A DNA stretch of 63,728 bases, the filler included. It is 8 parts of 8 records of this genome, joined end to end, with 100 filler letters (N's around TTAATTAATTAA, not from the genome) between each part and the next. Parts side by side here need not be neighbours in the genome. Positions count along the whole stretch, not along the records: positions 1 to 11,290 come from SRR7504441_11623; positions 11,391 to 16,061 come from SRR7504441_11626; positions 16,162 to 21,496 come from SRR7504441_11628; positions 21,597 to 28,948 come from SRR7504441_11630; positions 29,049 to 38,412 come from SRR7504441_11631; positions 38,513 to 50,456 come from SRR7504441_11656; positions 50,557 to 58,972 come from SRR7504441_11668; positions 59,073 to 63,728 come from SRR7504441_11683. The stretch is one strand, 5' to 3'. Within the stretch, counting starts at the first letter, position 1, and every line of letters begins with the position of its first letter. Shown piece after piece: positions 607 through 63,684 of the stretch. Both the position numbers and the translations under genes were made by a program. The notes under the pieces are model-generated. The model was given only the letters and a program-made list of their open reading frames with translations, had not been told where the DNA came from and made no database searches.

Positions 607-3266
607 TCAAAAGTCCTTGAAGCTCTCAAACGCCTCGATTATACGCGCCTCCGTTACTCCAGACAAAACCACGGCCTCGATTGTACCGATAAACGGCTTG
701 ATTTGCGTGAAGTACTTGCGACCCGACTGCTTGAATCGAGCAAGCGCCCACTGCACCCAGGCGCCTGCCCACACACTTGAGACTAATGTGCGAGGCTCAT
801 ACGGCCACCTTCAGGCTCGGAGTTCTCCTTGCACTTGGACAGGTGGGTCGAGATCCCTTTGACAAACCCCTCAAATAGCTCCAGAAACGTCTCCTTCAGC
901 ATTCTCAGCGCCTGCTCTCCACACATTCAACCAGACCCAGGCCTGCCTGACCTTCTGATGCAGCTGCGAGGTATGGGCGTGCCATTCCTGGTGCCTATCG
1001 TCGCCTGCGTGCGGGCCGCGCTCCCGCGAGTGCAATTCGGCCTCGAGCTTTGCGGCCATCGAGACGACGTGCACGATTCCGTACTCGAGCAACTCAAACA
1101 AGTGGCTCCGTGTGGCCAGCAGAGGCAGGTTCTCCGAGCTGAGCAAGCTGTGCACCATCGCCTTGGTGTCGAGCACGCCAGCGATCAGCAGATTCGGCAC
1201 AAGCAACAGCGGGGCTTGCGGTGTGTTGGTCCAAAAGCTCAGCATTGCGCCAAACTGCCCCTCCGACTCAACCACCGACATGACCTTTGGGCACCGCAGC
1301 TGTGCGAGCCTCAATCGACTTGAGCAGGGACTTGAGCAGCATCTCGTTCTTGAGGAACCGGCGCGAGCAGATCGACGGGATCCTGTGCGAGCTCTCGAGC
1401 AGGGCGTTCACCACGAGTACAGCGCGGGCCGTGTCGTCACTGCACGCAGCTCAGCACCGTGTGCGCTTTGTGGCGCACCGAGCTGCATAGTGCTGGTCGA
1501 GCAACTCAGTGATCGGCCGCTCGTCCGCTTTCTTCAGCAGCGACTGAAGCTCGGTGAAATTGCCGCCGGCGTCGTCCTCGTCGCACGAGACGGCGGTGGG
1601 CGGCTGTGGCAGGCAGCTCTGTAACGAGCTCGGAATCTTGCCCTCGAACTGCTCATACCCACTCAACCGGATGCACCGCTCCAGCAGCTGGCACGCGGTT
1701 AGCCCGGCCAGGCAGCCGGTGCGCACCTGGGTCACGAACTCCCTGTGCCGAGAGGAAGAGTCGGCCGCCGAATCGTTCTGAAGCATCTCTCCCCACGTGG
1801 TGGCCAGCCTGCACCGAGTGGTTGCCGGGCCCCGCCAGATGGCTTCTCACCCAGAGGCTGCATCGTCGCCCCGCGCCGGCAGGTACCACGGCTTCCAGTT
1901 GAAGTCGAACTGTGAGAGAAACAGCGCGAACCACTCGGTGGTCCGATCAAAGCATTCGACCTCGAGAGAAGGAGAGTCCTCGAAAAGAGCATGCAGGGCC
2001 GCCACAAAGAGCGCCTCGTACTTGGGATCGAGCTTGCAGAGGACCACCGCCACCATGCAGTAGTAGGCGATTGGCCCACTCGAGCGCGGCAATTGGAGCA
2101 GCTCGCCTATCAGAGCATTGACCACGAGTCGTCGCGGGCGGGTTGGAAGCATGGCCAGAGTCCGTGCGCAATCCACGTGGATCAACTCACAACTGACCAG
2201 AATGCCCTGAATCAAGCTGCCCCCAGCGTTAGTCCATGCCCCAACTCCGGCGAGCACCCAGTCACCACGGTGGCCTCGTGCTTGGTCAATTCGAGCTTAT
2301 CGTCCGTGTGGCCCTCCTCTAGAAGAGTCAGAGGCACGCCTCGCAGCCCCGCCAGTTCGGCTTGGGTGGCCGCCGGGATCTCGAGCGGCAGCTCGGCGAC
2401 CCGAAGCGTATGGGCATCGGCCTGCTCAAGCTCCTCCTTGAACTCGCGCTGTGGCCTGCCCCGGCCCCTCACGCGGAACAACTGCCAGCCAACCACCTGC
2501 TGCTCACAGCCGTGGCTACCTGCCAGCTGGCCTCCTGGCAGGCGAGCGCGCAGTCCCACGCCTCCACCAGCCGGTCGTCCGCCTCGACGCCCCGGCCGTC
2601 GGTCCACGCTGCCAGCGCCGACTGCGAGGGCGGCCGGGCTGTGTAGTTGGCCATCGTACTTTCAAGAGCCGACATGAGCCCGCCCAGCTCGCTCGCCAGG
2701 CCCAGCTCGGTGAGCACAGGCCCGATGCTCGGCATGGCCGCGCAGAGCAGCCAGGCGTAGAAGACGCGCACCCCGAGCTCCGGCTCGGGGGCCGTGGTGG
2801 CCGCCTTGATCCGATCCAGCAAGTCAAGCAGCGAGTCCCGACTGAGCGCCCCGGCCGCCACCAGCTCGGTCGCAAACACAAGCAGCGCCTGGCCCGCGCT
2901 CGCCGGGCCGGCCGCAGGGCGTACCTTGCTCCGGGTGCACTGTCCTCTCCGAAGTGCCTCGTCCAGCCGGGTGCCAACCTGATCGACCACGTTGGCCCCA
3001 AAGTGGCCGTTCCGGCGGTTGAGCAGCCCGGCGACGGTGGCGTACACCCCGGCTTTGTGGGGCATGTCCTGCGCCCCCTGGATGCACAGGTCGGCCACCA
3101 AATCCCCGTGACGCTCCATTTCCTCCCGCAGATCGGCCGCGAACGAGCCGATCTTCTCCTCGAGACCCTTGCGCTGGTCCCCGAGCTTGGAGAAGGCCGA
3201 CGCCAACATCAGCAGCTCGTCCTGCCCCCCGCCGTCCATCTCGTCGCGCCCACGCTTGCGATTCAT
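607..3266 (-). CDS. NCBP1: Nuclear cap-binding protein subunit 1 (CBP80), multi-exon
   Basis: Basic N-terminus MNRKRGRDE. MIF4G segment DMPHKAGVYATVAGLLNRRNGHFG; ECFDRTTEWFALFLSQFDFNWKPW; C-terminus WVQWALARFKQ...IIEAFESFKDF*. Short GT-AG introns join the frames. Confidence 0.9.
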
Positions 3267-3389
3267 CTGAAGCTTGCGGCGAGTTCGACCGAGCCTGTGC
3301 CAGTTTCCACCGGACTTCATCAACGGTCTAAGTTTCGATCTGTGCGCCACTGTCAGTGCACCGGGCGCCGGTATGGCTGAGTAGAAGCC

Positions 3390-6300
3390 ATGGGCAGCTA
3401 TGGCTCCGGGTGCTACATGCTTGTGCGCAACTGCCTGGGCGGGATGTGCCACGATTATTACCAAGCGATGTCCTACCTCGTCGCCTGGCTGGTGTCCTCA
3501 GTTCTCATCACCCTGGTGCAGTACAACGGCCGCTGCATCGGCATGCGCAGCTTCGTCGGCTGGGCGCTCAAACGCAGCGCCCCGCCGCCCACATGGGTGG
3601 CCGTGCTTGGCTGGATCGGCACCTGGACGCCAACCCTCCTCCTGATCGGCCTGGTTGTGAGCACCGTGATGAAATCATATAACGACCACTTAAATGACGA
3701 CAACGGGGACTTCTGCTACTCTGGCCCGGTAGTACTGATCTTCCTGCTCATCGTGCTCGAGTGCATCCGTTTGTCCGTCGCTGCCTGGCTGGTCGCTGGC
3801 GGCTGGCCCTGGCCGCTCAGCGCGCAGATGCTGTTGGCGGTGGCCACGTCCAGCTGGTTTGGACTGAGCCTGATCTATGCGCTCGAAGTGAGCTCGACAT
3901 TGCCAGAGAAGCTAGTTCTTGCGCTGAGCCTGACTTACATATTCGTCATAATGTTTTGCCACCTGGTGCTCCGATCAAAGTGCACGAGCCTCGTTGGTTA
4001 TGTGCACGGCCGTTGTGAGCACAAGCCTTTCAGGAATGGGGATCTCGACCGGGCCAGCGGATCGCAGCTGGCGACAGTGCATGGCAATCTGGTTGACACG
4101 TCCAGGAATCAGAACGTGCTTCTGTTTCTGTATGTGCTGCTATGGATCCTGTACATTTCCGCGCACCAGATTAATGCAGTAACTCCAAGGGTCAATACCG
4201 CGTATGTGGTGCCGTGTATGCTCCTCGCTGACACTGCGGCCGTGGTTGTGGCCCTTCAAACAAACTATGGCAAACCGTCACTCCCAGCAGTTCTTCTGGT
4301 CTTCGGACTGCCATTGGTCATGAGGCTCGTAGCTATCCTCAGTGCTGTGTTTACTCAGGATGACGCGCCGTGGCGAAACATACCTGCCTCCAGCTGCCTC
4401 ATCCTCGGCACCGCAAGCGCCTTCATGGGGGCAATGACGACCTACCACAGCATGTCAAATTCGCTATTGTTTAGCGAGCAGAAGCAGCACCTCGCAGCAA
4501 AGCTCGACTGGGAACGCCGCGAAGCATGGGTGAGTGCGCAGTTGAAGTACACCTCGCAGCAGCAATGGAGTGTATCCGGGTGGATGTCCCGCTTGCAAGC
4601 GAAGCTTTGGGGGGATCGTGGGGAATGGGCATCTATGTATGAGTATGGGCAGTTAATGAATTCCGACGGTGAAAATACGTGGTCGGGCCTGACCACCCTG
4701 TATGAGAGTGCCACCAAAGATCTGTGCAAAATCAATCCACTCGACCCAGCACAAGAACCAGCCCGTAAGACTCTTAAGCGAAGCTTGAACAGCATGTTCT
4801 GGAAGATGCAAGGGAAATTGATTTGCCGTCTCTCCTTGGCCATGATCCCGTACTTCATTTTTGTGTTTGCTTCATTAACTTTTGGGTCAACGTTCAACAG
4901 AGACTCGACATATCAGGATATTGTCACCTCATTTTTGGTAGTCGGCGCTGGCTTCATTTTATGCTTTGAAGTCTTCAAAGTTATGATCGACCAATACACT
5001 ATGGCTGCGGTCTATGCAAAAGTGCGGATTGCGCCACGCTTGTTGGAATACTTGGAACAGCCGATCAGGAAGCCCAAAGAATCTGCACCATGGTTAGGTC
5101 AGAGCCGGCTCCCTTCAGCAAGCTGCGACTTCATAGCCGAGCACGTGTGGCAAGAAGACATATGGGATGGCACTGTAGACCAGATCGACAGCATGGCAAG
5201 TGATGTCATCGAGGCAGCCCAACGGCTGAAAATTTCGCAGTGGGAGACAGTCACGTGCATTGCGCACGTGGTGTTTGAACGGACTGCTCGGACAGTGAGT
5301 ACCATACTGAATCAGAGCGTTGGGGACGAGGCGAGTGGCCGCCTATGACTGGTTTGACCACCAGGGGCAGGTTTTCAGGACCGCTGCAGCCACCCTCGGG
5401 CAAGATCTAGATGATGATTATTGCTGGAAGAGTCCTGCAAACGAGAACATTCTTACTACGTCATTGATCGAATGGAAAGAATACCACAAAGAGTGTATCT
5501 GCCCATCTAATGTGAGAAACGCCGCGTTGATGTCCGGTGCGCCATGATGCAGGCTCGTTAATTCTTCACTGACCATCTTGTGCGCAGCTCCACTTCGAAT
5601 ACCAGAGCTTGTGGTGCACTGTAGACCCCCATGCAATGTGAATCTTTCCGGTCAGGTGCAAAGTATACGGCGTCATTATCTGAGCATAGACGGGTTTGAC
5701 TGTTTGGACGATGTGTTGGATGCAGTTACTGTTCAAGGTGTGCAACATCGACCGACGTAGCTCACTGCTGTATGTTCAGGAGTGGTAGTGATTGCGAGGG
5801 CCCTTTGTCTCAAAGCTGACGTGGTCACTTGGCTGAAGAGGCTATCACTAGAACCTCGCATCTTAAACCGACGAACATCTTGCACAACAGAGGAAGGGAT
5901 AGCCTCGCCCCGTGAACCCAGGGCTCCGCTTTTACGGCAAACAAGCTCAGTACCACAGTCGTCCGGAAGGATGGCACGGCTGACTTCAAAGGCTACCTCG
6001 GGCCAATTGGATTCGGGTATTGCTGCCAGCTTTACAATCACAAACGAGTTTCAGAGGGACCTAATCGCAGGACGCGTCCATCTTTTCTCCATACCGTTTC
6101 ACTCCAAATACGGACTCTTGACAACGGCAGCTCAGACCATCACAAATGATGTTTCTAAGTGGCCCAGTGGATTCCGGGAGCGGAGCTGGATGGTTCACTG
6201 TATGTTGCTTCATCAACGTAGGGCACGTCTTCTCAGAGGCCAATTGCCTATCGGAATCATACTGTTTCTAATCGGAGACATGCTACTTACGGCCGTTTGT

Positions 6301-9300
6301 ACTTGCAGCTCTGCAACGCTAGTTGAAATTTTGTATTTGGTGGCAGCTCCTCTCGTGTTTAGCCATGCAATTCTTCTGTCCGACGAGGCGACGTACACCA
6401 AGCCGCTTTTCAGTCGCTCCATGCGTCTGCTCTTCGACTCGACGTCAATGCCGTTCAAGGAGATGTTCCTGACTGACAAGGTGGGCATCATAGCCGAGCT
6501 CGCCATGCCGACCTATACAGGGGCATGCGCCTTCGTGTTGGCGTTCCAGTTATATGGTGAATCTCTATGGGACGGCATGCTTCTACTTGCTGCGACAGCA
6601 ATTCTATACACTTCTCTTTTCCGCTTCATCATGGTTTTGTTTGGTAGCGCAGTAGACGCGTCATACATCAGTCTGGATGGCTACTTCATGATCGGTTACA
6701 TCACAGCAACTGTTGCTGCCGTTGTGGCACTAGTGGTTGATGACTACCAGGTGCTTTTTGTTACTGTGTCTGCGTACTACTACATCGCAGCTTTGGTGTT
6801 ATCGTCATTGTCAGAGTCTCGATTTCTACCAGAGTACTGCAAGTTTTTTAATTTTTTTACACTGGAGCAATATTGGATTTTGTACACATCAATTCAGAGC
6901 AGCTTTGCATTAGCGTGGTACGCTGAGAACACGCGCGACGAAGCGACATTTGTCTGGTATTTTTTGCCTTTACTTGGGGCCCACACTTCCCTCGGCAAGT
7001 TTCTCTACTTCATAGGTGCCTGTGTGTGGCACGAGAAAGACAAGCAGCCTCTAGCTATCCGGACGTATTATCTATTGTCTGCCGTCACCTTCGGGCTGTT
7101 TATGTTGTCTTTGGCCTCACTCGAAGTCATTAACGACTTCAGCGGGATCGGCTGGTACTTCTTCATCAAGTTACTTGAGATCCTGGCAGTACTAGCATTC
7201 CTACTCTTGCTCACAGGTGTGGGTACCCGCAACAGGTATACAACAGGCAGTAGCATCTTTCTGCTTCTGCCAACTGTATACCTATTGAAGGAGGCGGATG
7301 CGGACAACAAGACGCCCATGAAACTCCAGGTAAGCTACTGGACCAGCTTTCTGGTGATCACGATCTGCTCCTGTATGTTTTTATGGGGTGCATTTGCATT
7401 GCTGGTGCCTCAGGACAACGTTCAAGAAGCATATCACCTGGCGGATTACAGCTTGACATTTGCCGGTAGCCTTTAGTTCTTTCTTTCTGCCTGCCCTCCG
7501 TGGCTAACTACATCTCATGCAGGGATAGTTTCGACGTCTATGGCAATCGTGCTCCTCTGGTTATCGCCAATCATCATGGATATACTGCTTTCGATGAAAA
7601 TGAACGCCCTTCATCGACAATTGACGCAGGCAGTGCCTTGCCCGCTGCTGCAAGAGAGCAGAATAGACAGCTTGGCTCGGGAGATCTGGCAAGCATCTGG
7701 CCTGGAACTTCAAGACTGCATTGAACTCGGCTCATATATTGCTTCAAGCCTCTGTCGGCAGGTCCTCTGCAAATGCCTTCTCAAGAATGATCCGAGTCGC
7801 AAGGTCGACACCAGTGCATTATCTGGCATCAAATTTACCCGAGAATATTCCGCAAAGGTGCACTATTATTTATCTCACTCCCAACCACCAGCGAGTCTCG
7901 CTGAATCGCCTTTCTTCGATAATTGTAACCCGTTTGAGCTATGCGACCCGACCAAGCCGTTTGGATTCCGGCGCTGTGATGCTGCAAGCTGCACTCATGA
8001 AATGGGCATTTGTCCCCAGATAACCAGCAAGGAACCCCCTCCACGGTTCCGGTACAGATACGATAACCTGCGCGAAGGGGCCCCCTCTTTTCAGCAGATA
8101 GTTCTCAACGGAACAAATCGGTGGAGGCCGGCTGACTCAGATCAAGAGGTGCTATTTGATGAAGGCGATGAAATTGATCTCGGGTGGCAACCTCTACTGC
8201 GCTCTTTTGAATCGCATGGTGCAGGTACAACTTTTATGTTGCCGACCCAACTTTTGAGCCCTTGTCGAACGAGGTGAATTTGGTACAATTCTGCGAATTC
8301 TTTAAGACCCAGTATCTGGACATTGGTTGCCCATGCTTTGACGATGATCTGTGAGCACCTGTCTGCCATGCGTTCCTGACTTGACCTGTTTGTACACAGG
8401 CTTGCGAGTATCCGCGGTGAGGCATTCGCATCTATTCTGCCCGAAGCTAGCCGAGGCTGCCCATTATTTCGGGAACGTCTTGCGGGCTTGGACCCGTTTT
8501 ACGCGCAGCATGATCTGCCCGAGTCAACCAAGGATGGTCCTCTGCGCAATGAAAATGAGCTTGAAGTGGGATGCGGGACGGCGCCAGACCGGTCCACTGG
8601 CAGCGACGAGCAGCACACGATGTCTGGCTTCGCACAGGATTGCATTCGAGCGCATTCTGCATTAATCACCGCCCTAGATCACATTGAGCAGGATCAGAAG
8701 CTGCAAGTGTACATGGTGCTGCGCACCATTTTCGCAGCAGGGAACTTGCTTACCACGGAAGCTCGGGTTTTAGAAAGCATTCAGGGAACAGTGTCTTTCA
8801 GGGAGCAGTTCCTCGGCAGCGAAGATCTTCATACAGATTCTTCGCGCTATATACATACATGGAGCGAAGATCTTCGTCGGCAGCGTAGTGTTTCTGCCCG
8901 TGATTTCACAAAATACCTATTCGATAGTTCTAGCGCTACTACTACCGAGCTCAAGAATGAACGCAGGTGCCGCACGGTTTAGGGGCTGGTTCACCTAGAG
9001 TGATGCTCTTTATTGCAGGTTGACTTACCCTAACTGCATCTTCGGGACCCAAGCGCTAGACTCGGCCGCCGATCTGACTTCGGATTTGGGGAGGGAATCG
9101 TGTAAGTCCAAGGAGGACGCGATAGGCAGGCTGCTTGGCCATGAAATTAATGAGCTGCCGTGGTGGGCACAGCTTGTCGCGCTGACCGAAGAATGTGCGA
9201 AGTTGCTCTGGCAGGTTGCGCTGCTGGCCAAGGTGACGTATCCAACCGATCATGAGCCCGAAACAATAGTGACCATGGCCCAATGGGCCCACATCTTTGC

Positions 9301-10953
9301 CATCCATGTTGAGGACGACCCATTACCGGACAACGTCCGTCGCATCTACAGTCCTGCTCTGGGTGATGCCTTCTCAGTAATCGATCTCTGGGAAATGGCA
9401 AATGGCCTCGCACGTGAACTGAAGGAGATTCCAATGGATGATCGGGATTTCGTTGCGTCTTTCACGAAGGTCTTCCTGTTTCATTTCCATCCCATGCTCT
9501 ACGTTGGGTTTGCGGGGACTTGTGCCCACCGAAAGCGTGCCTTCAAGAGCGAGTTGAGGAGAAATCCGTCGTTTCGTATGCTCGTTGATGTTATCGCTGA
9601 AAGGGGTGCCAAGTACGATGCGAGTCAATATGCAGCCTCTGCGGACAACTTTTCACAGGTTGTGTGGCTTCCACATTTGCATTGTCACTGAGCCTTTGTA
9701 GGTGGCGCTACTGCCGACCAAGCTTGCACCGCTGTTAATGGAGAGTATGGAAGTGTACGCCAGGGGGCGCCCTCACCTCGGCCCCGCCGCGCTGCTCGAG
9801 GCAGCACTCCGCGTGGCGGCTATTTGCACTTACAAAATGGTATTCGAAAGAATATGGGGGAGCGAGACTATCACTTCTGCGGTGGCAGCAACGTGGCTGG
9901 CTGAATTGATGGAGTCCACGTGGCGTCGGTCTCATCCGGACAAAGATATCCCTAGTCTGGCTGAAGAGATATGCCGCAACGCGTGGGACGAGCCGGAAAC
10001 CACGTGGGAGATATGTCGCAACACGCAAGTAAATCGAGAAAACTTCCACAAGTTGCACGAGCGGATCGTAGAACAGATGCTTGGCCTGGAGAGGGACTAC
10101 TGTACACTGGGGCGCCTCTGTGGTTGTGTGAGTGGAGGCGAGAGTGATATCATGGTCTGGCGGTGCTGGCAGAGCACAACGCAGATTGTGATCGACTGGC
10201 TGAGGGACACGGAGGGGCCGAATTTTCCCGATGGGCTGTCGGATATGGATCCCGAACTCCACCAACTCTGGGAGTATGCGCAGTGGTGGCACGCTGCATT
10301 GACACAACGCTGGGAATTGTCGCTTCACCACGACTTGCCGTCATTGCAGTGGTGCAACCACTTAGACTTTTGTCGGTGCCCAACTGAATCCTGCTGTTTG
10401 ACAGGCAGCACCGGGTGCACGTCCAAGCGAGCGAAGGATTTGCAATGAGCGACTTTGCTGAAGCGGCTGAGCTCACCGCAAAGCTGGTCACTCAGCTATC
10501 TGACGCTTCACATCCCGCTGCCCAGCAACTACTCCCACATTTGCCAGGCAAGTCATTTACTTGTATTACTTTGATCCTCATTCCGGGGATTCAGGTGCAG
10601 CGGAACACATTTCAGGTTTAAAGGAATACTTCCTCATGCCTAAAGGCATGAAACAGGATTATCAAGCCTTGTATATGTGTGGAACCGCACTCTTACGAGT
10701 TAGTCGGCTCGCCAATATGGGAATGGCTATCGCGGAGAATCGCACCGCAGAGCTTGATGAAGACTTCGAATTGTCCATCCGTAGAGAGGAAAAGATTGCT
10801 GTGGCATTCCGCGAACAGCTCTATTCTTGCGTACGTAAGGCGGTCGAGTTAGATCCGTGGGCAATTCGATGCTGCGATTGTGGAGGGACTGATGGAAGGC
10901 CCGAGCGAATCATGAAATTGCTCGAACAGAGCTTGATGGGTGGTGTTACTTAA
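3390..10953 (+). CDS. Very large (~2,350 aa) multi-pass membrane protein of unknown family, ~11 exons
   Basis: ORFs at 3390, 5320, 5578, 5782, 7540, 8488, 9020, 9702, 10415 and 10561 join in frame through short introns, e.g. 8184-8224, 9659-9701 and GC-AG 10548-10594. About 24 hydrophobic segments lie in the first ~1,400 aa. Confidence 0.75.
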
Positions 10954-11003
10954 TTATTATAAAATTCATATAATTTTATGACTTTAATGTTTCATCAGAA
11001 TCA

Positions 11004-11290: not shown

Positions 11291-11390
11291 NNNNNNNNNN
11301 NNNNNNNNNNNNNNNNNNNNNNNNNNNNNNNNNNTTAATTAATTAANNNNNNNNNNNNNNNNNNNNNNNNNNNNNNNNNNNNNNNNNNNN
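11291..11390. other. Artificial contig spacer
   Basis: N44-TTAATTAATTAA-N44 (stops in all six frames). Confidence 0.98.
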
Positions 11391-52654: not shown

Positions 52655-52725
52655 CGGGGTCTTGGTGCGCCAACGGAAGAAGATCAGCTGCAGCCCTTCG
52701 CCCAGTTTGCCTCGAGAACTGCGGC

Positions 52726-53893
52726 ATGATGAAGGAACTTGTTGCGTGGCTCGGCGGCAACCTCCTCAGACTGGTGGCCGTGGCGTGGTGCGTCTCGCGG
52801 GCCGCCGGCACCTGCACCTGCGACACGGCCGCCCAGCCCGACTGCACCGGCCTCACCGACCTGTACCTGGCCACAGGTGCCAGCTGCGGGGGGTGGGGGC
52901 GTCTGACGGGGTGCAGGGGGCGCTGGCTGGACGAGCAACGCTGGCTGGTGTGACGGCGCCGACTACTGTGCCTGGGATGGGGTCACGTGCACCGGTACGT
53001 CCATCGTGGGGCTGGACAGGAGCAGCAACGGCCTGACTGGGAGCCTCCCCGACGGCCTGGGCGCGCTCGTCACGCTGACCTCGCTCAGCCTGTCGTCCAA
53101 CTCGATCTCGGGGTCCGTCCCAGCTGCGCAGCTGGCCGGGCTCACGCGGCTAGTCAATTTGATAATGCATGAGAACTCTCTCACTGGCACGCTGAAAGAG
53201 TCCCTTCTAGCACTGACAGCGCTGAACGAGCTGTGCCTCATCACGAACTCACTGTCGGGAACGCTTCCGAGCGGACTCACTTCCCTCTCTCGGCTTCAGG
53301 CCTTGTACTTTGGTAGTAATAGGTTCAGCGGCACAATCCCAGCTACGTATGAAGCGCTCACTGCAGTCACAGCGGCTTGTCTCCACTCAACTGACATCTC
53401 CGGAACCGTTCCTGCATCTCTCTCGTCGCTAACTCGTCTGGGCGCCCTCATTATGCACGGTCGTTATGAACGCCACGGTCGATTCAGCGGCACGCTCTCA
53501 GAGGCATTTGGGGCCTGGACAAGCATGGAAACTTTGACTATTAACAACAATAAGGGCCTGGTCAGCGTTTTGTATTTCAAATGGCAACTAGGCGACCAAA
53601 ATGCGGCAAGTGATCAAGCTCTTACCGATGCGATGGAAACGTGTGACACACATGAAGATACTGCGATGGAAACGTGTGACACAAATGAAGATACCGACTT
53701 CACCGCCCCTGATGGGGAACACACACAGCAACGTAATGGTTCAGATAGCTATAGTACAGACTGCATGGAGCTCGAGGATGTTTTTGCAGAACTTGAAGTG
53801 CTCCCGAGATTGGTTCCGAGGCGAGGTTCGTTCCGAGGCGGGGTGGAGGCGCCTGCGGCAGCTGAGGAGGCTCGTTGCACCTGCGGCAGCTGA
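52726..53893 (+). CDS. Secreted or membrane plant-type LRR protein; C-terminus uncertain
   Basis: Signal peptide, LRRNT cap (LYLATGG..W...CAWDGVTC), about seven LxxLxLxxNxLSGxIP repeats; one 40-nt intron. Confidence 0.75.
53629..53694. repeat. 33-bp tandem duplication with one mismatch
   Basis: tgcgatggaaacgtgtgacaca(c/a)atgaagatac x2. Confidence 0.9.
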
Positions 53894-54283
53894 GGACGCT
53901 TCGCAAGAGTTTGAGCCCATACTCCAGTTGTTTGTGTTGCTCTTTCTCCTTCCTGGCCTTCACTGCCTCTACCTGAAGGTATATTATATTGAAATGCGCA
54001 CCACAGAAGAATCAACCTGCTCGTTTAGTTAGAGCCATGTAGAGGTCGCTCTGACGCAAAAAAAGTTGGTTCGGAACCCGTCAGCAATGCGGAAGCAAAG
54101 AGGGCAACGACGAGATGAGGTTATCTACGGATGATTGTTGAATGTCGGATTCAGAAGATCTAGAGGACTTCGGTGTACATACTTGTCTGTGAGTATTTTA
54201 AAGCTGTAATTTATCATGCTCGTCGCATCTCATCTAGGCCGGTACTAGGCCGGGACTCTAATGCTGTTGAACACTGTGACAAT

Positions 54284-55398
54284 CTAATTTATACTTGTAT
54301 CCCCTAGATTTGTGTCTGCAACAATCGCAACAATCTTGTCGGCACACATTTTTATGAACCGCTGAGCATAATCTTGTGGGTTGATCGCAGACGAGCTCTT
54401 TGCAAACAACGCACTGGCAAAGCCCTGAGCAATCTTTGATGGGCTAAACTCAGTAGCGGTGTCAATGATACTTAGATAGCACTCGAATCCCGCGCCCGAC
54501 CGGACGACACAATGCCCGCAGCGCCACTCAATTGACTTTGTTTCGCCACCCTCAATTGACACATTGCCACCCTCAACTGACTTGGTTTCGCTATACGTCG
54601 GCAGGATGCCAACCAATAAAGAGTAGTCCATCACGCCGGGGTAGCCAGGATGGCGCGTGTCCATCGCCTGCAGCCGGGCCACATCCCTTTGAAGCGCCTC
54701 CTGCCGCACCAGTCACACGCGCACGCTGCGCAGCTTACCAGCACTGCTCTCTGAGCTTGCTCAGGCAGATCGATCGCCAGATCCTCCGCCTCCACGTCCT
54801 TGAGTGGAGTGGACGGGGTCCGTTTCAAAGGCGGGACCGAGCGACCCGCCGTGTGCCCTTTCAGGTCGAAAACATGCGGGCGTTCCGCCCGGTCGGAACG
54901 CAGTCCGTTGGTGAGCAGTGCGAGGTGCGCGGCTCGCTCGCCACACCGCACGGTCACCAGCGCCAGCTGTTGCATCAGCAGCGTCCTGCCCCGACTGGCC
55001 TCCAGGTGCTCGATCGCCCCCGCCAGGTTTCGGTCCCATACCGCAGCCTCGGAGCTCCCGACCTCCTTAATCAGCGCCAAAGCTGACCCGTCAGACACCC
55101 CTCCGAATCGCCCGAACAGGCAACGGCTCCGGCCCTTTGATGGCTTGGCGACCAGCCCCGCCTGCAGCTGTGCTCGCAGCGCCTCCGTGTCCACAGCCAG
55201 CTGCTGCCGGATCCAGGCCCGTCCGAGGGCCCCGCGCTCGTCCACCTCGCAGCCGCCCGAGGGCAGGCTGTGGGTCACGGCGGCGGCAAGCTCTGCTGGA
55301 TCTGGCGGGCCGGACAGCGCGGGCCGCTCCAGCAGCAGGAGCATCGCCTCCCGCGCCGGGGCCAGCCACCACACCGCCTCGGCCTGCGAAGATTCCAT
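54284..55398 (-). CDS. Divergent phosphatidylinositol-phosphate kinase (PIP5K family)
   Basis: GRSRCLF, LIKEV, FDLKG, LKD, MDYSLLVGI, SIID, SAINPQDYAQRF; one intron. Confidence 0.85.
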
Positions 55399-55419
55399 CG
55401 CAGCCTCCACTCCAACGGC

Positions 55420-57759
55420 ATGGGGCGGCTGTGGCTGCTCGGGCTGGTCGCGGCGTGTCACGGGGCCCCGGCTGACGTGGTCTGGACCACGCCCACCGCG
55501 CGCGGCATCCAGGGCAACTACGGCTCGATGCCAGTGGGCAACGGCCGGCAGGGCGCCAATGTGTACGCCGAGGAGAGTGGAGCCATCACGATCACCCTCT
55601 CGCACGTGGACGCGCTGGATGAGAACGCGATCCTCTCCAAGGTCGGGCGGCTGGTGCTCACGCCCCGGGCAGCCCAGGGTCTGCAGTTCGAGTCGATTTC
55701 GTACCATAATCAAAACGTGACTGTCATTGCAAAGTTGGGCGCCGTCACCGCCCGAATCTGGATTGACGCCGACAGGCCCGTGCTCCGAGCGGAGACGTGT
55801 GGCGCCGAGCACACCGTCCAGCTGCGGCAGGTGCTGTGGCGGAATGGGAGCAGCGCTGGGCCGAACGAGCACGGCACTTACTGCAACGCGTCTGCCGTGA
55901 TCATCCACCCGGATACTTTGGCCAACGTGGGTGACAACTCGTCTCTGGCGTGGTACCACTGGAACGACCCGCGATGGACCGGCTCGTTCGAACGGGATCT
56001 GGTGGCACAGGGAATGCCCAAATCGGCCAAGGCCCTGCCGGCAAATCCGATGGCCAATTTGACATTTGGCGGTGTGGCGACACTGAGCCGACCCGCTCGC
56101 CGGATTGACCCAGTCACTCTGGTAACGAGTGAGGCCAGTAGCTGCAACACTCTGAGCGTGGCTGTCGATGTCCAGTACAGCACTAGAGAAGGCACGGAGC
56201 ACTTCTTGGCAGAGCTCAAAGCGCGGAGCAATCAGCCTGCCGACACCACCGCCCACAATCAAGTCTGGAATGACTTCTTCGCCGCCTCAGACATCACAGT
56301 CAACCCGAGTTCCCGCCCGAACGACACGGCCAGGGCCGCGCTGGCCGCGAATGTGACCTTCATGGATCGGCTGCAGCGGGCGATGCTCCACCTCAATAGT
56401 GGCGGTCGGGTCTCTGCAGTCAAATTCAACGACTTTGGCATCTTTTCGGTCGGGGACGAAAACCCCGATGGGCGGGTCTGGGGCGCGTGCCAGTGGTTTC
56501 AAAACATTCGCCTGCCGTACTACCACATGCTGGCGTCCGGGAGCCCGGATGACATGAAGTCGCTATTTGAATTCTATAAACGCATCCTCCCGGTCTCGAT
56601 GGCCCGGGTGAGCGAATGGTACAACGAGTCGGGAGCTTTCTTCCCTGAGACGGCCACACAGGCAGGAGTTTACGCATCGGGCGGTCTGGGTTGGGGCTGC
56701 GTGCCAGCGGCGCCCCACCTCTCCTCGAACTCGTTCATACGGTATCACAGGGAGGGCGGGCTGGAGCTGAGCCTCATGGCACTTGATTGGTACGACCACA
56801 CGCAGGACGCCGCATACTTTGATGCCACACTGTTGCCGCAGATCAAAGCGTACGTTGCGTATTACGCCGAGCATTTCAACCCCGCCGGGGCTTTGGAGAT
56901 TTACCCTGCGCAGGCACTCGAAACCTGGCAGTGTCCGGATGTTCCAGCCAGCAAGGCCCAGTGTGTGACTAACCCGATGCCAGAGGTAGCGGGGCTGCAT
57001 GCAGTGCTCCCGCGTCTGCTCGCTCTCGACCTGAACACCTCGCTAGTTCCAGAGGCCACTGTAGCCTCTTGGAGGTCGCTGCTGGCCAGACTGCCACCAT
57101 TACCATCCACACCGGGAGATGGCAGTGTGCCTGCTGTGCTGACGGCCGGATCCATGCTGCCACCCAAGACATCGAATGCTGAGAATGCGGAGCTCTATGT
57201 AAGCAGCCTGTCTAGCTTAGCTGTCGGCTTGATTTGGTGTGTTGTCCAGGCGGTGCATCCGTATCGAATGATCGGCATCCGTGCAAACACGACACTTGGG
57301 ATCGCCACTTATCGTGCGAGGAGGTTCCATGGGGACACGGGCTGGTCTCAGGACTTCATGGACGCTGCATTACTCGGGCTCGGCAACGAGGCGGCCGATC
57401 TGGCGGCGTCGCGCTCCATTCGTGCTCCTTACTCAGCAGTGCGGTTTCCTGCTTTTCAAGACGGCATAGGGGCTGGTGGTGCAATCACGGATCACCCTGG
57501 GGTCACCACCGCGGGTCTTCGGTATATGCTGGTCCAGAGCCGGATTGCGGGCTTAGACGAGAACGCCGTCATAGTATTGCCTGCGTGGCCATGCGAGGAT
57601 TGGGCCGTGAGCTTCAAGTTGCATGCACCTCAAGCTACTGTCATAGAAGGCAACTACGACGGTAACGGGACACTCTCCCTCTTCAAGGTAACTCCAGAGG
57701 CGAGGAGGAAGGACATGAGTTTCGGAAGCTGCATAAAGAGGGTGGTGACCGCTAGGTGA
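55420..57759 (+). CDS. Secreted GH95-like/DUF5703 glycoside hydrolase
   Basis: Signal peptide, SMPVGNG, WFQNIRLPY, GAFFPET, PAQALETW, ENAELY|AVHPYR (51-nt in-frame intron 57199-57249), GWSQD, LPAWP..W.VSFKLHAP. Confidence 0.75.
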   Translation: MGRLWLLGLVAACHGAPADVVWTTPTARGIQGNYGSMPVGNGRQGANVYAEESGAITITLSHVDALDENAILSKVGRLVLTPRAAQGLQFESISYHNQNVTVIAKLGAVTARIWIDADRPVLRAETCGAEHTVQLRQVLWRNGSSAGPNEHGTYCNASAVIIHPDTLANVGDNSSLAWYHWNDPRWTGSFERDLVAQGMPKSAKALPANPMANLTFGGVATLSRPARRIDPVTLVTSEASSCNTLSVAVDVQYSTREGTEHFLAELKARSNQPADTTAHNQVWNDFFAASDITVNPSSRPNDTARAALAANVTFMDRLQRAMLHLNSGGRVSAVKFNDFGIFSVGDENPDGRVWGACQWFQNIRLPYYHMLASGSPDDMKSLFEFYKRILPVSMARVSEWYNESGAFFPETATQAGVYASGGLGWGCVPAAPHLSSNSFIRYHREGGLELSLMALDWYDHTQDAAYFDATLLPQIKAYVAYYAEHFNPAGALEIYPAQALETWQCPDVPASKAQCVTNPMPEVAGLHAVLPRLLALDLNTSLVPEATVASWRSLLARLPPLPSTPGDGSVPAVLTAGSMLPPKTSNAENAELYVSSLSSLAVGLIWCVVQAVHPYRMIGIRANTTLGIATYRARRFHGDTGWSQDFMDAALLGLGNEAADLAASRSIRAPYSAVRFPAFQDGIGAGGAITDHPGVTTAGLRYMLVQSRIAGLDENAVIVLPAWPCEDWAVSFKLHAPQATVIEGNYDGNGTLSLFKVTPEARRKDMSFGSCIKRVVTAR

Positions 57760-58056
57760 CTGCGTGATTACACGTTAATTACACGTACACTACAAGGACT
57801 AGTGAATTGATTGTACGTGAATGTAACGTGAATAACAACATAGTTACAGTAAACATGATGGCAAATTAGAACTTAAAACAATTGCGTCATTACATGTATT
57901 AGATCTATACTCGTACTCCTAAAGCGTGTATTAACAATTGCAGAGAAGACATGAATGTAGCCATTGTATCAAAAGGCCCTGGCTAGCTCCTTCGCTTGGC
58001 TAGCTGCCTGCGGGTAGATGAGGAGCTAGGCTAACTCGAAAACCAAGCTGGCTCCT

Positions 58057-58972
58057 TTAAGCTCCCTTAGCTTGGTTTTCGAGTTCGCCTAGCTCCTCAT
58101 CTGCCCGCAGGCACAGATTGCGCGGACACAGGCTCGTGGAACCCGCACCGTCGCGATCGTCTTGCGTGAACACGAACCCAGCTGCCGGCCCTCTGACTGG
58201 TTGGATGTTCACTGGCTTGCCAAGGTGCTTCCCGTCGGTCTCAGTGTAGAGAGGTACACTCTCGTCAATCACTCCGAGATCCTCCACGAGCCTGAGGCAC
58301 TCCAGCAATCGGTAATTCAGCACCTTGGCCGCGTCCTGCACTACCGACCACACGAGTGTGTATGCCCACACAAACCCAATTGCTTGCCAGCTGATGCTCT
58401 CCATCCCCGCCCCAAACGGCCAGAAGGCCGAGAAGAGAGTGGCTGCGACCACGGCCACCAGCGCAGCAAATACGACAGCCAATGACGGGGCCCTGGTCCA
58501 GCACCACGACTTGGTGCGCGAGTTGAACACGGAGCCGTAGTCGGAAAGAGAAATCTTGAGGTACATAAGTGTCTGGATCTCGCCATAACTCATCGCGTCG
58601 AGCCCAAAGGCACACAGCCCTCCGTCACCGTCAGCGCCGTCGAGTGCTAGCTGGAGCAGCACAATAGAGGACACTAAGGCCATCAGCCCTATGACTGACG
58701 ACGTCCAGTACAGAATCTTGAGATCCCATGACTGCGGCCTGAGCGAGGCCTCCACGTTGTCGTAAGCGACAGAGATGATTGTACCGTCATTCAGAATTGT
58801 GATCGTCACGAGCGCGAGCACAGGCAGCGCAAAGTAATTCGGCCAGTCGTTGCTGTTGGCCCCATCAGGCATGTAGTCCTTGGGGTCGTATGCAATGGTC
58901 GAGATCAAAAAGAAGAAGAGCAGCTGTTCGGTGCAGGCCACTCGGTAGATCACAAAGTTCTGCATCCGAGTG
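58057..58972 (-). CDS. P3A plasma-membrane H+-ATPase, C-terminal part (5' truncated)
   Basis: RMQNFVIYRVACT, ITILNDGTIISVAYDNV, YLKISLSD...FNSRT, QDAAK. Confidence 0.88.
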
Positions 58973-59072
58973 NNNNNNNNNNNNNNNNNNNNNNNNNNNN
59001 NNNNNNNNNNNNNNNNTTAATTAATTAANNNNNNNNNNNNNNNNNNNNNNNNNNNNNNNNNNNNNNNNNNNN
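58973..59072. other. Artificial contig spacer
   Basis: N run with TTAATTAATTAA. Confidence 0.98.
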
Positions 59073-59208
59073 TCAGTTCGGCAGATACGTATCTAGAGCT
59101 CAACTGAGATCTCCGCTTAGTCTAACAATAATAACAAATCACACATCACTATGCCGCGGGACTAGGAGAAATCACATTATTTGCGGTGTTGCGCCAATGA
59201 CCGGTTAA

Positions 59209-61832
59209 TCACTCCTTGAAAAACTGGTTGTCGATGCCCATCTCGGCCGCCATATTGACCTGCACACCCGCCTGAGCCCTCCATTTCGCCCGATTGGCAC
59301 CATCTTGTCCAGATCGTCTTTGGTCGGGAACTCGGGCAAATCGATCGTGTTTGTACACCTACGTTCCCACAGCTCACTGTCTGCGACCACAAGCACCGGC
59401 ACGTGTGTCCCATTGGCATCATCATCCCGCCGTCCCGCTTCCTGCCGTACTTGACTCGCTTAATCGTGAATAAGCCGTTCCGGTTGGCCAGCCCTCCAAA
59501 GCCTCCGAGCGGCAGCGACTGGGATCCTGTCACAAACTGCAGCAGCTTGGTCCGCTTGTCCGAAGTCATGGCCTCCACAGTCTGCCAATCCGTCAGCGGG
59601 ACATCGGCTCGGGCGCCAAACCTCCCAGAACCATCCAATCACCTTGTGGCTGGCTGAGTAGCTAGGCCCTGGCAATGGGTCTCCACCGGTCGTGTCCTTG
59701 TACTCGACATTGGCCTGCCCCCCGAACCTCGCCGACTCGCCCAAGGTCGGAGCCACCTTCCAGTCGGCGAGGTCCAGCTCCATCGAGCCACACAGCAGCA
59801 TCTCCAGCTCTTGCCACGAGAAGACGGAAACCTGCACCGGCCATTCTGAGCCAGAGTCGGTCGGCGCAAACACCAGGTGTGGATGGATCACTTCCCAGAA
59901 CCCGCGGAGCAGCATCTGTAGCTCGCGCTCGATCCGCCCACGCAGCGCGTACTGGAACGAGAGCTCAATGTAGTCCATCTTGTTGGCCTCAGTCACCTGC
60001 CAACCGCTGGCTGGCCGCACCAGGACCGAGCGCGAGTCGCCTCGATCGAGGCCCCGCCAGGCTTGAGTGGCTTTTCCTCGGTGTTGCCCTCGGCGTCGGT
60101 CTCCTCCACAGCAAAAACCTCGTAGAGGATGTCGGTGATGTCGTTGTCGCGCATGTACATGAGCTTGGCGTACTCTCCAGCGTCGATCTCCTCCAGATCC
60201 GCGAGCTTAAGCTCTTGCTGGAGCATGCTCTTGTAGATATTTGGAGTTAGATGCACCGGAAGTCGCTCCCCATCGAACAGCACCATTCCCATCAGCCGGC
60301 CAACAAAATGGAGCAGCTGCAGGTGGTTGCGCTGTTTGCCTCCAGAAGTCCGCATGGCTCGATGCCTGAACACTGCGGTCGGGTCTAGTTTGAAATAATC
60401 ATTATCTTCGTCGTATTCAAACAGCGACATTTCCTGGCTGGTGAAGATCTTCTTCTTGAGTAGCTCGATCCAGCCCTTAGTGATCCCTCCAGCGTCATCC
60501 TCGATCACCGTCTCGTTTAAAAACACAACCTAAGCCCGGCAACTCACCGCGCCAGCCCAAACCGGCTCGACCCACCTTCATAGGAGCGTGGAGCTGCTTC
60601 AAATCCTGAGGCCCGATAGCGTCGATTGAATCCTCGAGCACTGTTGCGCGATTGATAGAGATGTCCAGCCGGCCTTTGGTGTTAATTGACCTATCCAGCT
60701 GTGCCCTGAACCATTCGACTCGCTGGTCAAAGCTCAGTTGACGAATCCTTTCACTAGAGTCCGCATACTGCTCAAACCTGCCTCGCTGTCAGCCCCAGCG
60801 AGAGGCGGGACGGCCTTTTGTTCATCTCCAGGTCGTATTCACTGACAAAGTACGCCTTATCGTCATTCACCATGTACTTATGCGCGTGTCCAGTCACCTC
60901 CTCGATAGACATCTTAGTCACTTTCTCCTACGACTGGCCGGTCAGCCAGCGTAACAGAAATATGACCGAGATCTCTATACAGCAGGCCATCTACGCAACG
61001 GCTTGCGAGACCTTTGCTAGGCCCGGCAAGTCATCCACAATTGTTCCCTTGTTGATCGAGTGATCCTCCCACTCCGGCCCGAAAAATCGGGGCGAGATGT
61101 CCATTAAGAACATCCACTCCTGCGCCACGCAAGCTCAGCTCAATACAAAGCGTAGCCCTGCCTGCGAGCCTCCCATAGCCGGTACCGCGCGCACCGCTTG
61201 CCGACCACGGCCAATCAGCTGATCGTACCTGGCCCGGCTGCTCACACCCAGCCGGCCTGAGCACGCACAGCGCCGCGGTGTGCTTGGCCTCGATCGCTGC
61301 AACTGCCTTGACGCTCTTGTCGCCGGCTCGGCGGGGCTTCGTCAGGCTATTCTCATTGGTCGCCGTATTGCGCCAGTAAACCTGGCCCGCCCGCTCGGAC
61401 CCCGCCCGCCCCGGGGTCGGACGCCTTGCCGGTTCGGCGGTCCAGCTTTTCGACCCAGCTGTCCCCGGCCGGTCAGCTGGAGCCTGGCCGGGGCTCCAAC
61501 CCATCAGGCAACGCGTCCTCCTCCTCAGGCGGAGCGGCCGCTGGTGGGGGCGGGGCCGAGGGCGGGGCTGGGCGGTGTCCGTATTGTTGGACCAGGTGGG
61601 CCGGCGGCGGGCCGGGCGGCGGGGCGTGGGTAGACGGAGGGGCGTGCTGCGGGTAGTTGGGGTGGCGCGCATGCTGCTGCTGGAGAGCGGCGGTCGAGCC
61701 CACGATGGGATCCCCGGGCCGACGACCGGTGGGCGACGGGATGTCGTGCCCGGGCGGCAGCTCGTTGTCTTGGCTAGTACCACTGCCCCTCCATCTCAGC
61801 CAGCCTCTCCTGACAGCGGCTCACCAGCCCAT
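59209..61832 (-). CDS. HECT E3 ubiquitin ligase with a WW-like domain and N-terminal MGCGTS acylation motif
   Basis: Spliced MGCGTS; LPDGWVEKLDRRTGKVYWRN; DAGGITKGW; VTEANKMDYI; LLQFVTGS; PMGHTCTNTIDLP (catalytic Cys). Confidence 0.9.
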
Positions 61833-61869
61833 GATGATCCGTTGCCAGTGCAGTGCGATCTGCAGCCCG

Positions 61870-63684
61870 ATGCGTGCACAGGTGGCGGTGGCGCTGCTCC
61901 CGCTCTGGGCCGGGGCGTGGGACAACGGGCTGGCCCGGACCCCTCCGCGTGGCTTCGCCACCTGGAACATCTGGCCGTTCACCAGCCAGGTCAACCGGAC
62001 TTGCTCACCCCCAACCTGCGACCCGATGGTGTACATTGAGCGCTCGGTCAATCAGAGTCAGTGCGCTGGCTGGGCCCAGGCGCTCGTGGACACCGGGCTG
62101 GCCCGGGAGGGCGGGTTCGAGTATTTCATCGTGCAAGAGCCCTGCTTCGGCCCACGGGACCCGCTCTCGGGGGAGCTGACCCAGGGCGGAGAGTTCGGCG
62201 ACCGGTGGCCGGACGGGATGGGCGGCTTCGGGCGGTTCTTGCACCAGCGCGGAATGCGGCTGGGGATCTACACCGATATCGGGCCGACAACCTGCGGCCG
62301 CTGTGTCGGGTCTTTTGACCACGTCAGGCAGGACATGCTGACGTTTGCCGGTTGGGGTGCCGACCTTGTCGAAGTAGACGCGTGCAACGGGGACGTGGCT
62401 GAGGCCACGTGGGCAGAATACCGGGACGCCATCAACGCCACCGGCCGACCGATGGTGCACTCAGTGTGCGCCGAGGGCATGGCGAAGGTGTGGACTTGGG
62501 GGATGCGCGTGGGCAACTTTTGGCGTGTCAATGGCGATATTCAAAACGGGTGGCTCAATGTGGTGCAGGGACTGGACGGTGCCATGAGCATCCCGCACAT
62601 CGAGAGTTATGCCGGGCCTGGCGGTTGGAATTCCATGGACATGCTGGAGATCGGAGCAAGGCCGGGTAATTATTCGTGGGGCGGGCCCGGACTTACTGAG
62701 GCTGAGGCGAAGGCGCATTTTACGCTCTGGTCCGTGCTTAAGAGCCCGCTGCTGCTCGGAGCTGACCCTCGGCTGATGTCTGAGGGCATTGTTGATATTC
62801 TTAAAAACCCAGAGCTTAAGGCCATACACCAGGATCCGCTGGGGCGGCAGGCCAGGAGGCTAGATAGCAACTTCCCGGGATATCACGCAGCCAACGCCAC
62901 TGCTGCAGTGCTCAGGCCATGCAACCGATCCGACCCTCAGCAACTCTTCGGAAGTTCGTACGGCCAGACTGTAGACATTGTGGCGCCAGGCACCAAACCG
63001 CCGATTCCGAGAGTGAGGAGCGCGGTTGCATCAACCCATTGCCTGTCGGCCTCCGCGTGCCAGCCTGACAGCCCGTCCAGCCCGCTCGTGATTCGGCAGT
63101 GCGATGACTGGACTGGCGACTCGTGCTCCCCATGGGGAGAGGCGTTTGCCGGCCAGATCTTCAGGCCAGTGCCAGGCGCAGATGGCAGCGTGCAGCTTGT
63201 TGCAAACGTGAGCACGAACAACACAGACCGGGCAGCCGCCAAGCTTTGTGTGAGCGTGGGCGCTTCCAACAGCATCCGGCTTGAGCCTTGCGAGGCTGGG
63301 CGAGATACGCAGCGATGGGTCTGGGATATTGACCCTCAGACCTCCGGGGACGCCCACCCCTCGCACCCGGGTACTCTGATTGCATCTGCAGGCAGCAAAG
63401 GCATGTGCCTGTCCACCAACTTTAGCGTCACTGAGATGAACGAGGTATATATCGGCGAGCTGGCCAACGGAGGGTGGGTCGTGGTGATGTTCAATAGGAC
63501 GCCGATGGCGCGCACCTTGACGATCGAGCTTAGTCGGCTGGGCAGCGCCTTGAAGAGCTGGAAATTGCGAGACATTTGGGCCAAGAAAGATACCGGAGAG
63601 CTTCCTAGTACCGACACGCTGAGTCGGCTAGTCGAAGCGCACTCGGTAGTTTTGTTGCGGCTTGACCCCAATACTACCACGTAA
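61870..63684 (+). CDS. Secreted GH27 glycoside hydrolase with an inserted ricin-B-like lectin region
   Basis: WDNGLARTPPRG, RWPDGM, LGIYTDIG, VEVDAC, WRVNGDI, HFTLWSVLKSPLLLG, QDPLG; Cys-rich QxF/QxW repeats; RDIW C-terminal domain; intronless. Confidence 0.9.
   Translation: MRAQVAVALLPLWAGAWDNGLARTPPRGFATWNIWPFTSQVNRTCSPPTCDPMVYIERSVNQSQCAGWAQALVDTGLAREGGFEYFIVQEPCFGPRDPLSGELTQGGEFGDRWPDGMGGFGRFLHQRGMRLGIYTDIGPTTCGRCVGSFDHVRQDMLTFAGWGADLVEVDACNGDVAEATWAEYRDAINATGRPMVHSVCAEGMAKVWTWGMRVGNFWRVNGDIQNGWLNVVQGLDGAMSIPHIESYAGPGGWNSMDMLEIGARPGNYSWGGPGLTEAEAKAHFTLWSVLKSPLLLGADPRLMSEGIVDILKNPELKAIHQDPLGRQARRLDSNFPGYHAANATAAVLRPCNRSDPQQLFGSSYGQTVDIVAPGTKPPIPRVRSAVASTHCLSASACQPDSPSSPLVIRQCDDWTGDSCSPWGEAFAGQIFRPVPGADGSVQLVANVSTNNTDRAAAKLCVSVGASNSIRLEPCEAGRDTQRWVWDIDPQTSGDAHPSHPGTLIASAGSKGMCLSTNFSVTEMNEVYIGELANGGWVVVMFNRTPMARTLTIELSRLGSALKSWKLRDIWAKKDTGELPSTDTLSRLVEAHSVVLLRLDPNTTT

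Follow-up and report, generated by a model that had tools for sequence, protein, structure and literature searches.

The window analysed here is a 63,728-nt stretch made up of eight contigs. They come from an uncultured marine protist, GC-rich and without a reference genome, whose nuclear genome is compact. The window contains 11 pairs of oppositely oriented adjoining genes whose start codons (ATG) lie only 21–154 bp apart. The best reading of this layout, to which we give a probability of roughly 55%, is that the genes of a pair share a short bidirectional promoter and have very short, possibly overlapping leaders. The gaps of 21 (or 75), 37, 38 and 42 bp in four pairs leave no room for two separate promoters with ordinary leaders, so that promoters and leaders have to be very short, overlap or be shared. 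A single Myb-type site, YAACGG, is the commonest recognisable element of the divergent spacers.

Divergent pairs and the YAACGG element

All 11 divergent pairs are contig-internal. Their spacers are as follows, with the minus-strand gene and its start codon given first.

3267–3389, 123 bp: MIF4G (cap-binding-protein-like) gene (−, ATG 3266) and multi-pass membrane protein gene (+, ATG 3390); YAACGG at 3321–3326
18343–18432, 90 bp: ankyrin-repeat gene (−, 18342) and JmjC-like gene (+, 18433); TAACGG at 18354–18359
23921–24024, 104 bp: EF-hand gene (−, 23920) and RRM gene (+, 24025); no YAACGG, AT-rich TATATA-like stretch
26261–26385, probably 125 bp: minus-strand start 26260 and plus-strand start 26386 or 26413; TAACGG at 26297–26302
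28726–28828, 103 bp: RRM (U1-70K-like) gene (−, 28725) and a gene with a hydrophobic N-terminus (+, 28829), cut by the contig end at 28948; CAACGG at 28788–28793
37983–38020, 38 bp: two small genes without a known family (−, 37982; +, 38021, the latter cut by the contig end); no YAACGG, CCAAT
45689–45842, 154 bp: 2279-residue ankyrin/calpain gene (−, 45688) and EF-hand gene (+, 45843); TAACGG at 45769–45774 and AACGG at 45805–45809
50780–50821, 42 bp: GH27-like secreted protein gene (−, 50779, cut at the contig end, 50557) and acetoacetate-decarboxylase-family gene (+, 50822); CAACGG (−) at 50795–50800
52655–52725, 71 bp: GNAT acetyltransferase gene (−, 52654) and secreted LRR protein gene (+, 52726); CAACGG at 52671–52676
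55399–55419, 21 bp, the tightest (75 bp if the minus-strand gene starts at Met19): PIP5K-like gene (−, 55398) and DUF5703_N secreted protein gene (+, 55420); CAACGG at 55413–55418, 1 nt before the plus-strand ATG
61833–61869, 37 bp: WW-domain (probably NEDD4-like HECT) gene (−, 61832) and GH27 alpha-galactosidase gene (+, 61870); CAACGG (−) at 61839–61844

The ATG–ATG gaps of the 11 pairs therefore measure 21, 37, 38, 42, 71, 90, 103, 104, 123, 125 and 154 bp, with a median of 90 bp. The eight convergent stop-to-stop spacers are longer (151–1070 bp, median 268 bp; Mann-Whitney p = 5e-5). The two classes also differ in base composition, with a GC content of 0.58 in the divergent spacers, matching the window average of 0.58, and of 0.47 in the convergent ones (p = 6e-4). 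Neighbouring genes within contigs form 11 divergent, 8 convergent and 7 tandem pairs, a tally that covers two weak models and the ubiquitin-conjugating-enzyme (UBC) open reading frame (ORF). Neighbours thus lie on opposite strands in 19 of 26 cases (binomial p = 0.014), or in 19 of 25 (p = 0.007) if the models 31742–32374 and 32550–35053 are one gene. The strands of most partners in the divergent pairs are backed by Pfam, by homologues or by introns seen in RNA.

The initial annotation of this DNA had described a genome built from divergent gene pairs, in which most genes alternate in orientation and the 3′ spacers are mostly longer and AT-rich. Both the alternation and the character of the 3′ spacers are borne out in the 63-kb sample. 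The tight divergent pairs likewise hold there, but the wider phrase, of a genome built from them, is based on these eight contigs of a fragmented assembly.

When the 11 spacers (908 nt, taking 26260 as a start) are compared blind with the rest of the window by their k-mers, AACGG comes out as the top 5-mer. It has 10 sites in nine of the 11 spacers, where 1.33 sites are expected (Poisson p = 1.4e-6; ~7e-4 when corrected for 512 5-mers). Neither the 5000 shuffles nor the 5000 sets of segments drawn at random from the window ever gave nine spacers with the motif; their means were 1.7 and 1.3 and their maximum 6. All but one of the 10 sites are preceded by C or T, giving YAACGG, and frequent forms are CAACGGA and AACGGAAG. 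AACTG is also enriched (7 against 1.4 expected). We take YAACKG to be the Myb recognition core, YAACGG the core of c-Myb and 3R-Myb sites, and AACGG that of the plant MSA element. On this basis the YAACGG of the spacers is a candidate site for a Myb-type factor, although no Myb gene has been recognised among the genes of the window.

The spacers also contain fewer ATG triplets than expected, 13 against 25 with both strands summed (p = 0.007). This depletion fits spacers that are transcribed as leaders.

Start codons of the paired genes

Gene models were obtained with a gene finder written for this analysis, which combines two-strand dynamic programming, a 3-periodic Markov coding score and short introns with weight matrices for splice sites that were trained iteratively. 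Start sites are not modelled, and overlap between genes is disallowed. An ATG (+) or CAT (−) is found at every start codon listed for the divergent pairs in the initial annotation. The gene finder alone picks the same ATG at 20 of the 22 positions, and 21 of the 22 starts are upheld after 61832 (−) is rescued by hand.

The start that was replaced is 26383 (−). Here 26260 is preferred because the intervening stretch (26260–26383) has a non-coding score and an implausible translation; the start context at 26383 is also poor. The gap of 2 bp proposed for 26383/26386 is thus more likely one of about 125 bp. The premise that the smallest gaps are too small for two initiation complexes and two leaders stands for the four pairs at 21 (or 75), 37, 38 and 42 bp; the 2-bp case probably came from a mis-called start. 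In one gene-model set, 23 of the 28 predicted starts have no other ATG in frame between them and the nearest in-frame stop upstream, and therefore the gaps can widen, not shrink.

Four starts in the tightest pairs (50822, 55420, 61870 and 50779) are fixed, as judged from homologues or N-terminal features. Homologues of the 61870 gene begin 4–5 residues downstream of its ATG, so that the in-frame ATGs further upstream are unused, and the same start is shared by three related metagenome loci. For 50822, several N-termini among 69 family members fall within a few residues and carry the same MG...C motif. The conserved core of this protein begins at residue 21, and the next ATG is 198 nt downstream. 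The protein starting at 55420 matches Pfam DUF5703_N from residue 22, preceded by a signal-peptide-like stretch. At 50779 a signal-peptide-like stretch is followed by 'LDNGLGRLPGLGWNS', resembling the N-terminus of the GH27 gene at 61870. Outside the pairs, the gene starting at 31182 aligns with residue 1 of a homologue. The PIP5K-like gene at 55398 is less sharply placed: the N-terminal offsets of three homologues are −31, +2 and −6 residues, which excludes the long upstream ORF and leaves Met19 as a possible start, for a gap of 21 or 75 bp.

Measured from the chosen ATG as far as the following one, the coding log-odds are positive at 20 of the 22 starts. At 45688 they are negative, as they are at the rejected 26383. 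The value for 61832 spans only an 8-nt first exon, as this frame meets a stop after 9 nt. The chosen starts stand in a Kozak-like context, with a purine at −3, no T at −1 and G at +4. Position +4 is G in 15 of 22 paired starts, against 27% of all 1773 ATGs (p = 8e-5), and −3 is a purine in 16 of 22, against 49% of ATGs (p = 0.02). T never occurs at −1 among 27 starts. Met-Gly begins 10 of 27 predicted proteins, for example those at 3390, 24025, 26260, 28725, 50822, 55420, 61832, 47621, 15898 and 16308. These Met-Gly starts may stem from the +4 G context, from N-terminal acylation or from the two together.

The start at 61832 depends on a gene model with a very short first exon.

61832–61825, −: 8-nt first exon ATGGGCTG, followed by a 42-nt intron at 61824–61783; predicted by hand, model only

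The intron has weight-matrix scores of 5.6 for the donor and 5.5 for the acceptor, compared with training medians of 4.1 and 5.8. It opens a proline-rich frame that otherwise has no ATG, and this frame runs on through a 42-nt intron and a 43-nt GC-AG intron into LPDGWVEKLDRRTGKVYWRNTATNENSLTKP, which from its consensus we take to be a WW domain. The predicted model makes the start at 61832 (−) plausible. Pfam gave no match on the unspliced minus-strand ORF 61031–61795, because the WW domain is split by the two introns of ~42 nt. A link between the WW exons (61832–61269) and the HECT exons (60912–59209) was sought and not found; they belong to one gene or two, and in either case the minus-strand gene starts at 61832. 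The 8-nt exon would yield an MGCGTS... N-terminus, which resembles an acylation motif.

Proposed shared promoters and rival readings

In the reading that we prefer, head-to-head neighbours would share one short spacer of normal GC content, 21–154 bp long, as a bidirectional promoter. Transcription would begin within the spacer or at its edges, and the leaders would be very short, at most a few tens of nucleotides, and possibly overlapping. For transcripts that do not overlap, spacer length gives a ceiling on leader length. In the 21–42-bp cases the initiation machinery of each gene would sit over the first codons of its partner. Translation would start from the first AUG in a Kozak-like context, while 3′ ends would fall in the longer, AT-richer convergent spacers.

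RNA contigs that match the contig 50557–58972 leave the spacers 50780–50821, 52655–52725 and 55399–55419 uncovered, stop inside coding regions and extend to none of the 5′ ends. The initial annotation had proposed overlapping 5′ UTRs with promoters inside the partner's coding sequence, near-leaderless mRNAs or spliced-leader trans-splicing, an interpretation that is supported in part. The loose ends of RNA matches on this contig are 32–41-nt matches, mostly of 90–95% identity. They were considered as evidence on leaders and rejected; we read them as conserved fragments of other organisms.

Several points weigh against shared short promoters. Leader length and transcription start are deduced from the genomic sequence rather than from 5′-end reads. 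The distance (1–83 nt) and orientation of YAACGG to either ATG are not fixed. Two of the 11 spacers lack the element, the one at 37983–38020 having CCAAT and the one at 23921–24024 the TATATA-like stretch instead. Among the unpaired starts (9 genes, 11 candidate ATGs), YAACGG occurs within 200 nt upstream of two, namely 60912 and a gene whose start is 6190 or 6280, so it is not a universal promoter mark. The motif and ATG statistics rest on simple Poisson or shuffle backgrounds. The starts at 37982 and 38021 have no homologue support and rest on frame, coding score and start context, and the 55398 gene may start at Met19.

A second explanation is that the transcripts of a pair overlap head-to-head. 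Transcription would then start inside the coding sequence of the partner, with the promoter embedded there, and the two mRNAs would be mutually antisense at their 5′ ends. By the usual footprint sizes, a spacer of 21–42 bp is too small for two non-overlapping initiation complexes, and for several starts the 300 nt upstream are free of ATG on the same strand. Over their first 150 nt, the 22 paired genes have half the frequency of antisense ATG that is seen further in: CAT accounts for 12 of 153 triplets that are permutations of A, C and T, compared with 123 of 825 at 300–1200 nt (Fisher p = 0.011). This is the depletion expected from selection against upstream AUGs in the leader of the partner. 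However, six unpaired control genes are similarly low (4 of 39), and the depletion may instead reflect the composition of 5′ ends (GC 0.69). We regard overlapping transcripts of this kind as unlikely, if worth keeping in view.

It is less probable still that the extreme gaps are artefacts of the gene models, with true starts at downstream ATGs, gaps of about 75–180 bp and ordinary small bidirectional promoters. The 2-bp gap is probably such an artefact. Downstream in-frame ATGs exist at +54 for 55398, +69 for 37982 and +27 for 38021, and homologues of the PIP5K-like protein are N-terminally shorter by 6–31 residues in two of three cases. For 50822, 55420, 61870 and 50779, however, downstream starts are excluded by the homologues, and both the positive log-odds at 20 of the 22 chosen starts and the enrichment of G at +4 favour the chosen ATGs as real.

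Spliced-leader trans-splicing, in which transcripts begin elsewhere and receive a common capped leader at an acceptor just upstream of the ATG, so that the spacer needs no conventional 5′ untranslated region (UTR) or promoter, is very improbable: AG dinucleotides lie upstream of both ATGs even in the 21-bp spacer and taxonomy provides no argument against it, but the alternating gene order (19 of 26 opposite) is unlike the same-strand arrays that are typical, although not universal, in genomes dependent on spliced leaders, and an enriched spacer motif with ATG depletion on both strands fits local promoters. An Rfam scan at gathering threshold gave 0 matches in the window, to a spliced-leader RNA or any other family, a weak result for 63 kb; a tRNA scan of the window found nothing.

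Shared bidirectional promoters are in themselves common. Head-to-head pairs that use them are general in eukaryotes, as in the GABP-driven human pairs (described in an excerpt of PMC2077898). The bidirectional promoters of yeast, plants and mammals likewise consist of a short intergenic segment shared by divergent genes and enriched in a specific factor site. They differ in that their definition refers to transcription start sites, which may be as much as 1 kb from each other, and in that their leaders are ordinary, whereas here the start codons themselves are 21–154 bp apart, and the enriched site is YAACGG rather than ETS, NRF-1 or Sp1.

Extreme versions of the layout are known from compact genomes. 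In the microsporidian Encephalitozoon cuniculi, rapid amplification of cDNA ends (RACE) gave 5′ UTRs of <7 nt, and CCC-like and AAATTT-like signals directly upstream of the ATG serve to correct start-codon calls (both from an excerpt of PMC2803860). Microsporidia show extreme compaction as here, but they are AT-biased, almost intron-free parasites with transcription overrun. The present genome is GC-rich, has about 4 introns per gene, and carries YAACGG rather than the CCC-like or AAATTT-like signals. In Giardia, leaders are a few nucleotides long, and AT-rich initiator promoters give rise to sterile antisense RNA. Very short, inherently bidirectional promoters in the compact genome of Giardia lamblia are reported in an excerpt of PMC1885649. 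In the window, by contrast, both directions enter protein-coding genes and the spacers are of ordinary GC content.

Spacers of tens of base pairs with overlapping transcription are also known from nucleomorphs, which are endosymbiont remnants, and from Galdieria sulphuraria; both are AT-rich, unlike the GC-rich window, and we know of no Myb-type spacer element in either. Plant MSA elements confer G2/M-specific expression on particular genes. The core of the plant MSA/c-Myb element is identical to that found here and its flanks are partly similar (e.g. TCCAACGGC), whereas in the window the candidate sites occur in nine of 11 unrelated divergent spacers. The layout is thus the same in kind as that of known compact systems, and differs by its GC-richness, its intron density (with some GC-AG introns), its candidate element and a lineage without a reference genome. 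A literature search found no paper on the organism or on YAACGG in protist bidirectional promoters, which is not proof that none exists.

Tentatively, we extend the shared-promoter reading from the window to its lineage. Ultra-short bidirectional units around one Myb-type YAACGG site could make up most promoters of a free-living, intron-rich and GC-rich marine protist lineage, giving mRNAs that are near-leaderless or that overlap head-to-head. Compaction of the microsporidian or Giardia type would then have come without parasitism or intron loss, which we consider possible rather than probable. If the arrangement is true and confirmed at 5′ ends, it represents a non-parasitic, intron-dense eukaryote with promoters and leaders confined to 20–150 bp, and a natural test of the minimum size of a working bidirectional RNA polymerase II promoter. 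Standard pipelines would fragment or mis-start genes laid out in this way. Gene callers for such environmental genomes need to take account of start context, YAACGG, introns of ~41 nt (some of them GC-AG) and an 8-nt first exon.

Source lineage, gene models and other features

The contigs of the window occupy positions 1–11290, 11391–16061, 16162–21496, 21597–28948, 29049–38412, 38513–50456, 50557–58972 and 59073–63728. That they are eight sequences joined end to end follows from the seven identical linkers between them.

11291–11390, 16062–16161, 21497–21596, 28949–29048, 38413–38512, 50457–50556 and 58973–59072: contig linkers, N44-TTAATTAATTAA-N44

TTAATTAATTAA is a six-frame-stop linker, and the adjacency of genes across linkers is artificial. 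The joins truncate genes: an AP-4 beta gene, for example, is cut at 29049 and has no C-terminal appendage.

The GC content of the window is 58%, with a local range of 47%–66%. Its genes encode eukaryotic proteins, among them adaptin, ankyrin/calpain, EF-hand, RRM, PPR, Kelch, HECT and GH27 proteins. The closest proteins in large collections are marine sequences with 61–83% identity, while named organisms reach only 35–47%. The relatives of AP-4 beta follow this pattern, with 64–79% identity in marine sequences and only 42–47% in chlorarachniophytes, oomycetes and plants. A protein atlas offered no clue to the taxonomy. RNA contigs from four runs in three studies, three of the runs being polyA, are 95–99+% identical to parts of 50557–58972, and the runs are labelled as aquatic, seawater or marine metagenome. 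Judging by this identity, the RNA libraries of those water samples contain the organism itself or one very closely related to it.

The gene finder returned ~31 models, a density of about one gene per 2 kb. They cover ~70% of the non-N sequence, and the strand of most of them is backed by Pfam or homologues. The 122 predicted introns, about 4 per gene, are short (median 41 nt; 70% at 35–45 nt and 96% at most 60 nt) and have a GC content of 0.67. Once GC donors were allowed, nine GC-AG introns of typical length appeared, several of which displaced GT models of odd length; a further one of matching length was found by hand at 61382–61424. Short introns carry a CTGAC/CTGAG-like branch site ~10–15 nt upstream of a CAG acceptor. 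A simple regular-expression search for introns was too noisy and was dropped. Only two introns are visible in RNA, and both were predicted exactly.

51126–51168, +: GT-AG intron, 43 nt, seen in an RNA contig
54701–54738, −: GT-AG intron, 38 nt, seen in an RNA contig

The models are weak between 10.5 and 14.7 kb, where there is almost no coding signal, and they miss the UBC ORF at 36229–36828 (−). Three long "introns" across linkers are artefacts. The weak region (~10500–14700, the end of the first contig and most of the second) comprises ~4 kb of lower GC content (0.35–0.55), with an island of 0.6–0.7 at 11400–12000. The gene-finder model sees no coding signal there in any frame, and the long ORFs have no Pfam match. 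The region may be non-coding, a repeat, or occupied by genes of atypical codon usage.

The minus-strand gene at 38772–45688 encodes a protein of 2279 residues that has numerous ankyrin repeats and, at its C-terminus, a cysteine protease domain of the calpain type. The gene has only two predicted introns, of 39–41 nt. Two GH27 alpha-galactosidase-like genes with signal-peptide-like N-termini lie on different contigs, at 50557–50779 (−) and 61870–63684 (+), and both belong to head-to-head pairs that are among the tightest. Of the two, the gene at 61870–63684 (+) is complete and has a weak ricin-type (beta-trefoil) carbohydrate-binding insert.

Relatives of the alpha-galactosidase were found at five metagenome loci, with 43–60% identity. 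In three of these loci, at 58–60% identity, no head-to-head partner is seen upstream of the alpha-galactosidase gene. The long related locus L001 (12 kb), the only one that was modelled, looks less compact, and the splice and codon models transfer to it poorly. Just upstream of the alpha-galactosidase start in this relative (~58% identity), a segment of ~80 nt is tandemly duplicated (~330–500 in L001, ~260–430 in L002). The locus with the duplicated segment has a GC content of 0.66, a less compact appearance and different neighbours.

The 3′ spacers of the window carry a motif of their own. TACGAGTA, often as the palindrome TACTCGTACGAGTA, marks these spacers, for example at 17154, 25287, 46823–46845, 51942–51950, 51975–51990 and 57910. 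Eight of the 11 copies of ACGAGTA in the window fall in five of seven convergent spacers, where 0.09 are expected. The motif stands in sense orientation +34 to +151 nt past the stop codon in seven of 29 genes. Only one RNA contig extends to a 3′ end, and it breaks off at 51962, 12 nt beyond the motif. The TACGAGTA motif is a candidate 3′-end or polyadenylation signal for a subset of genes.

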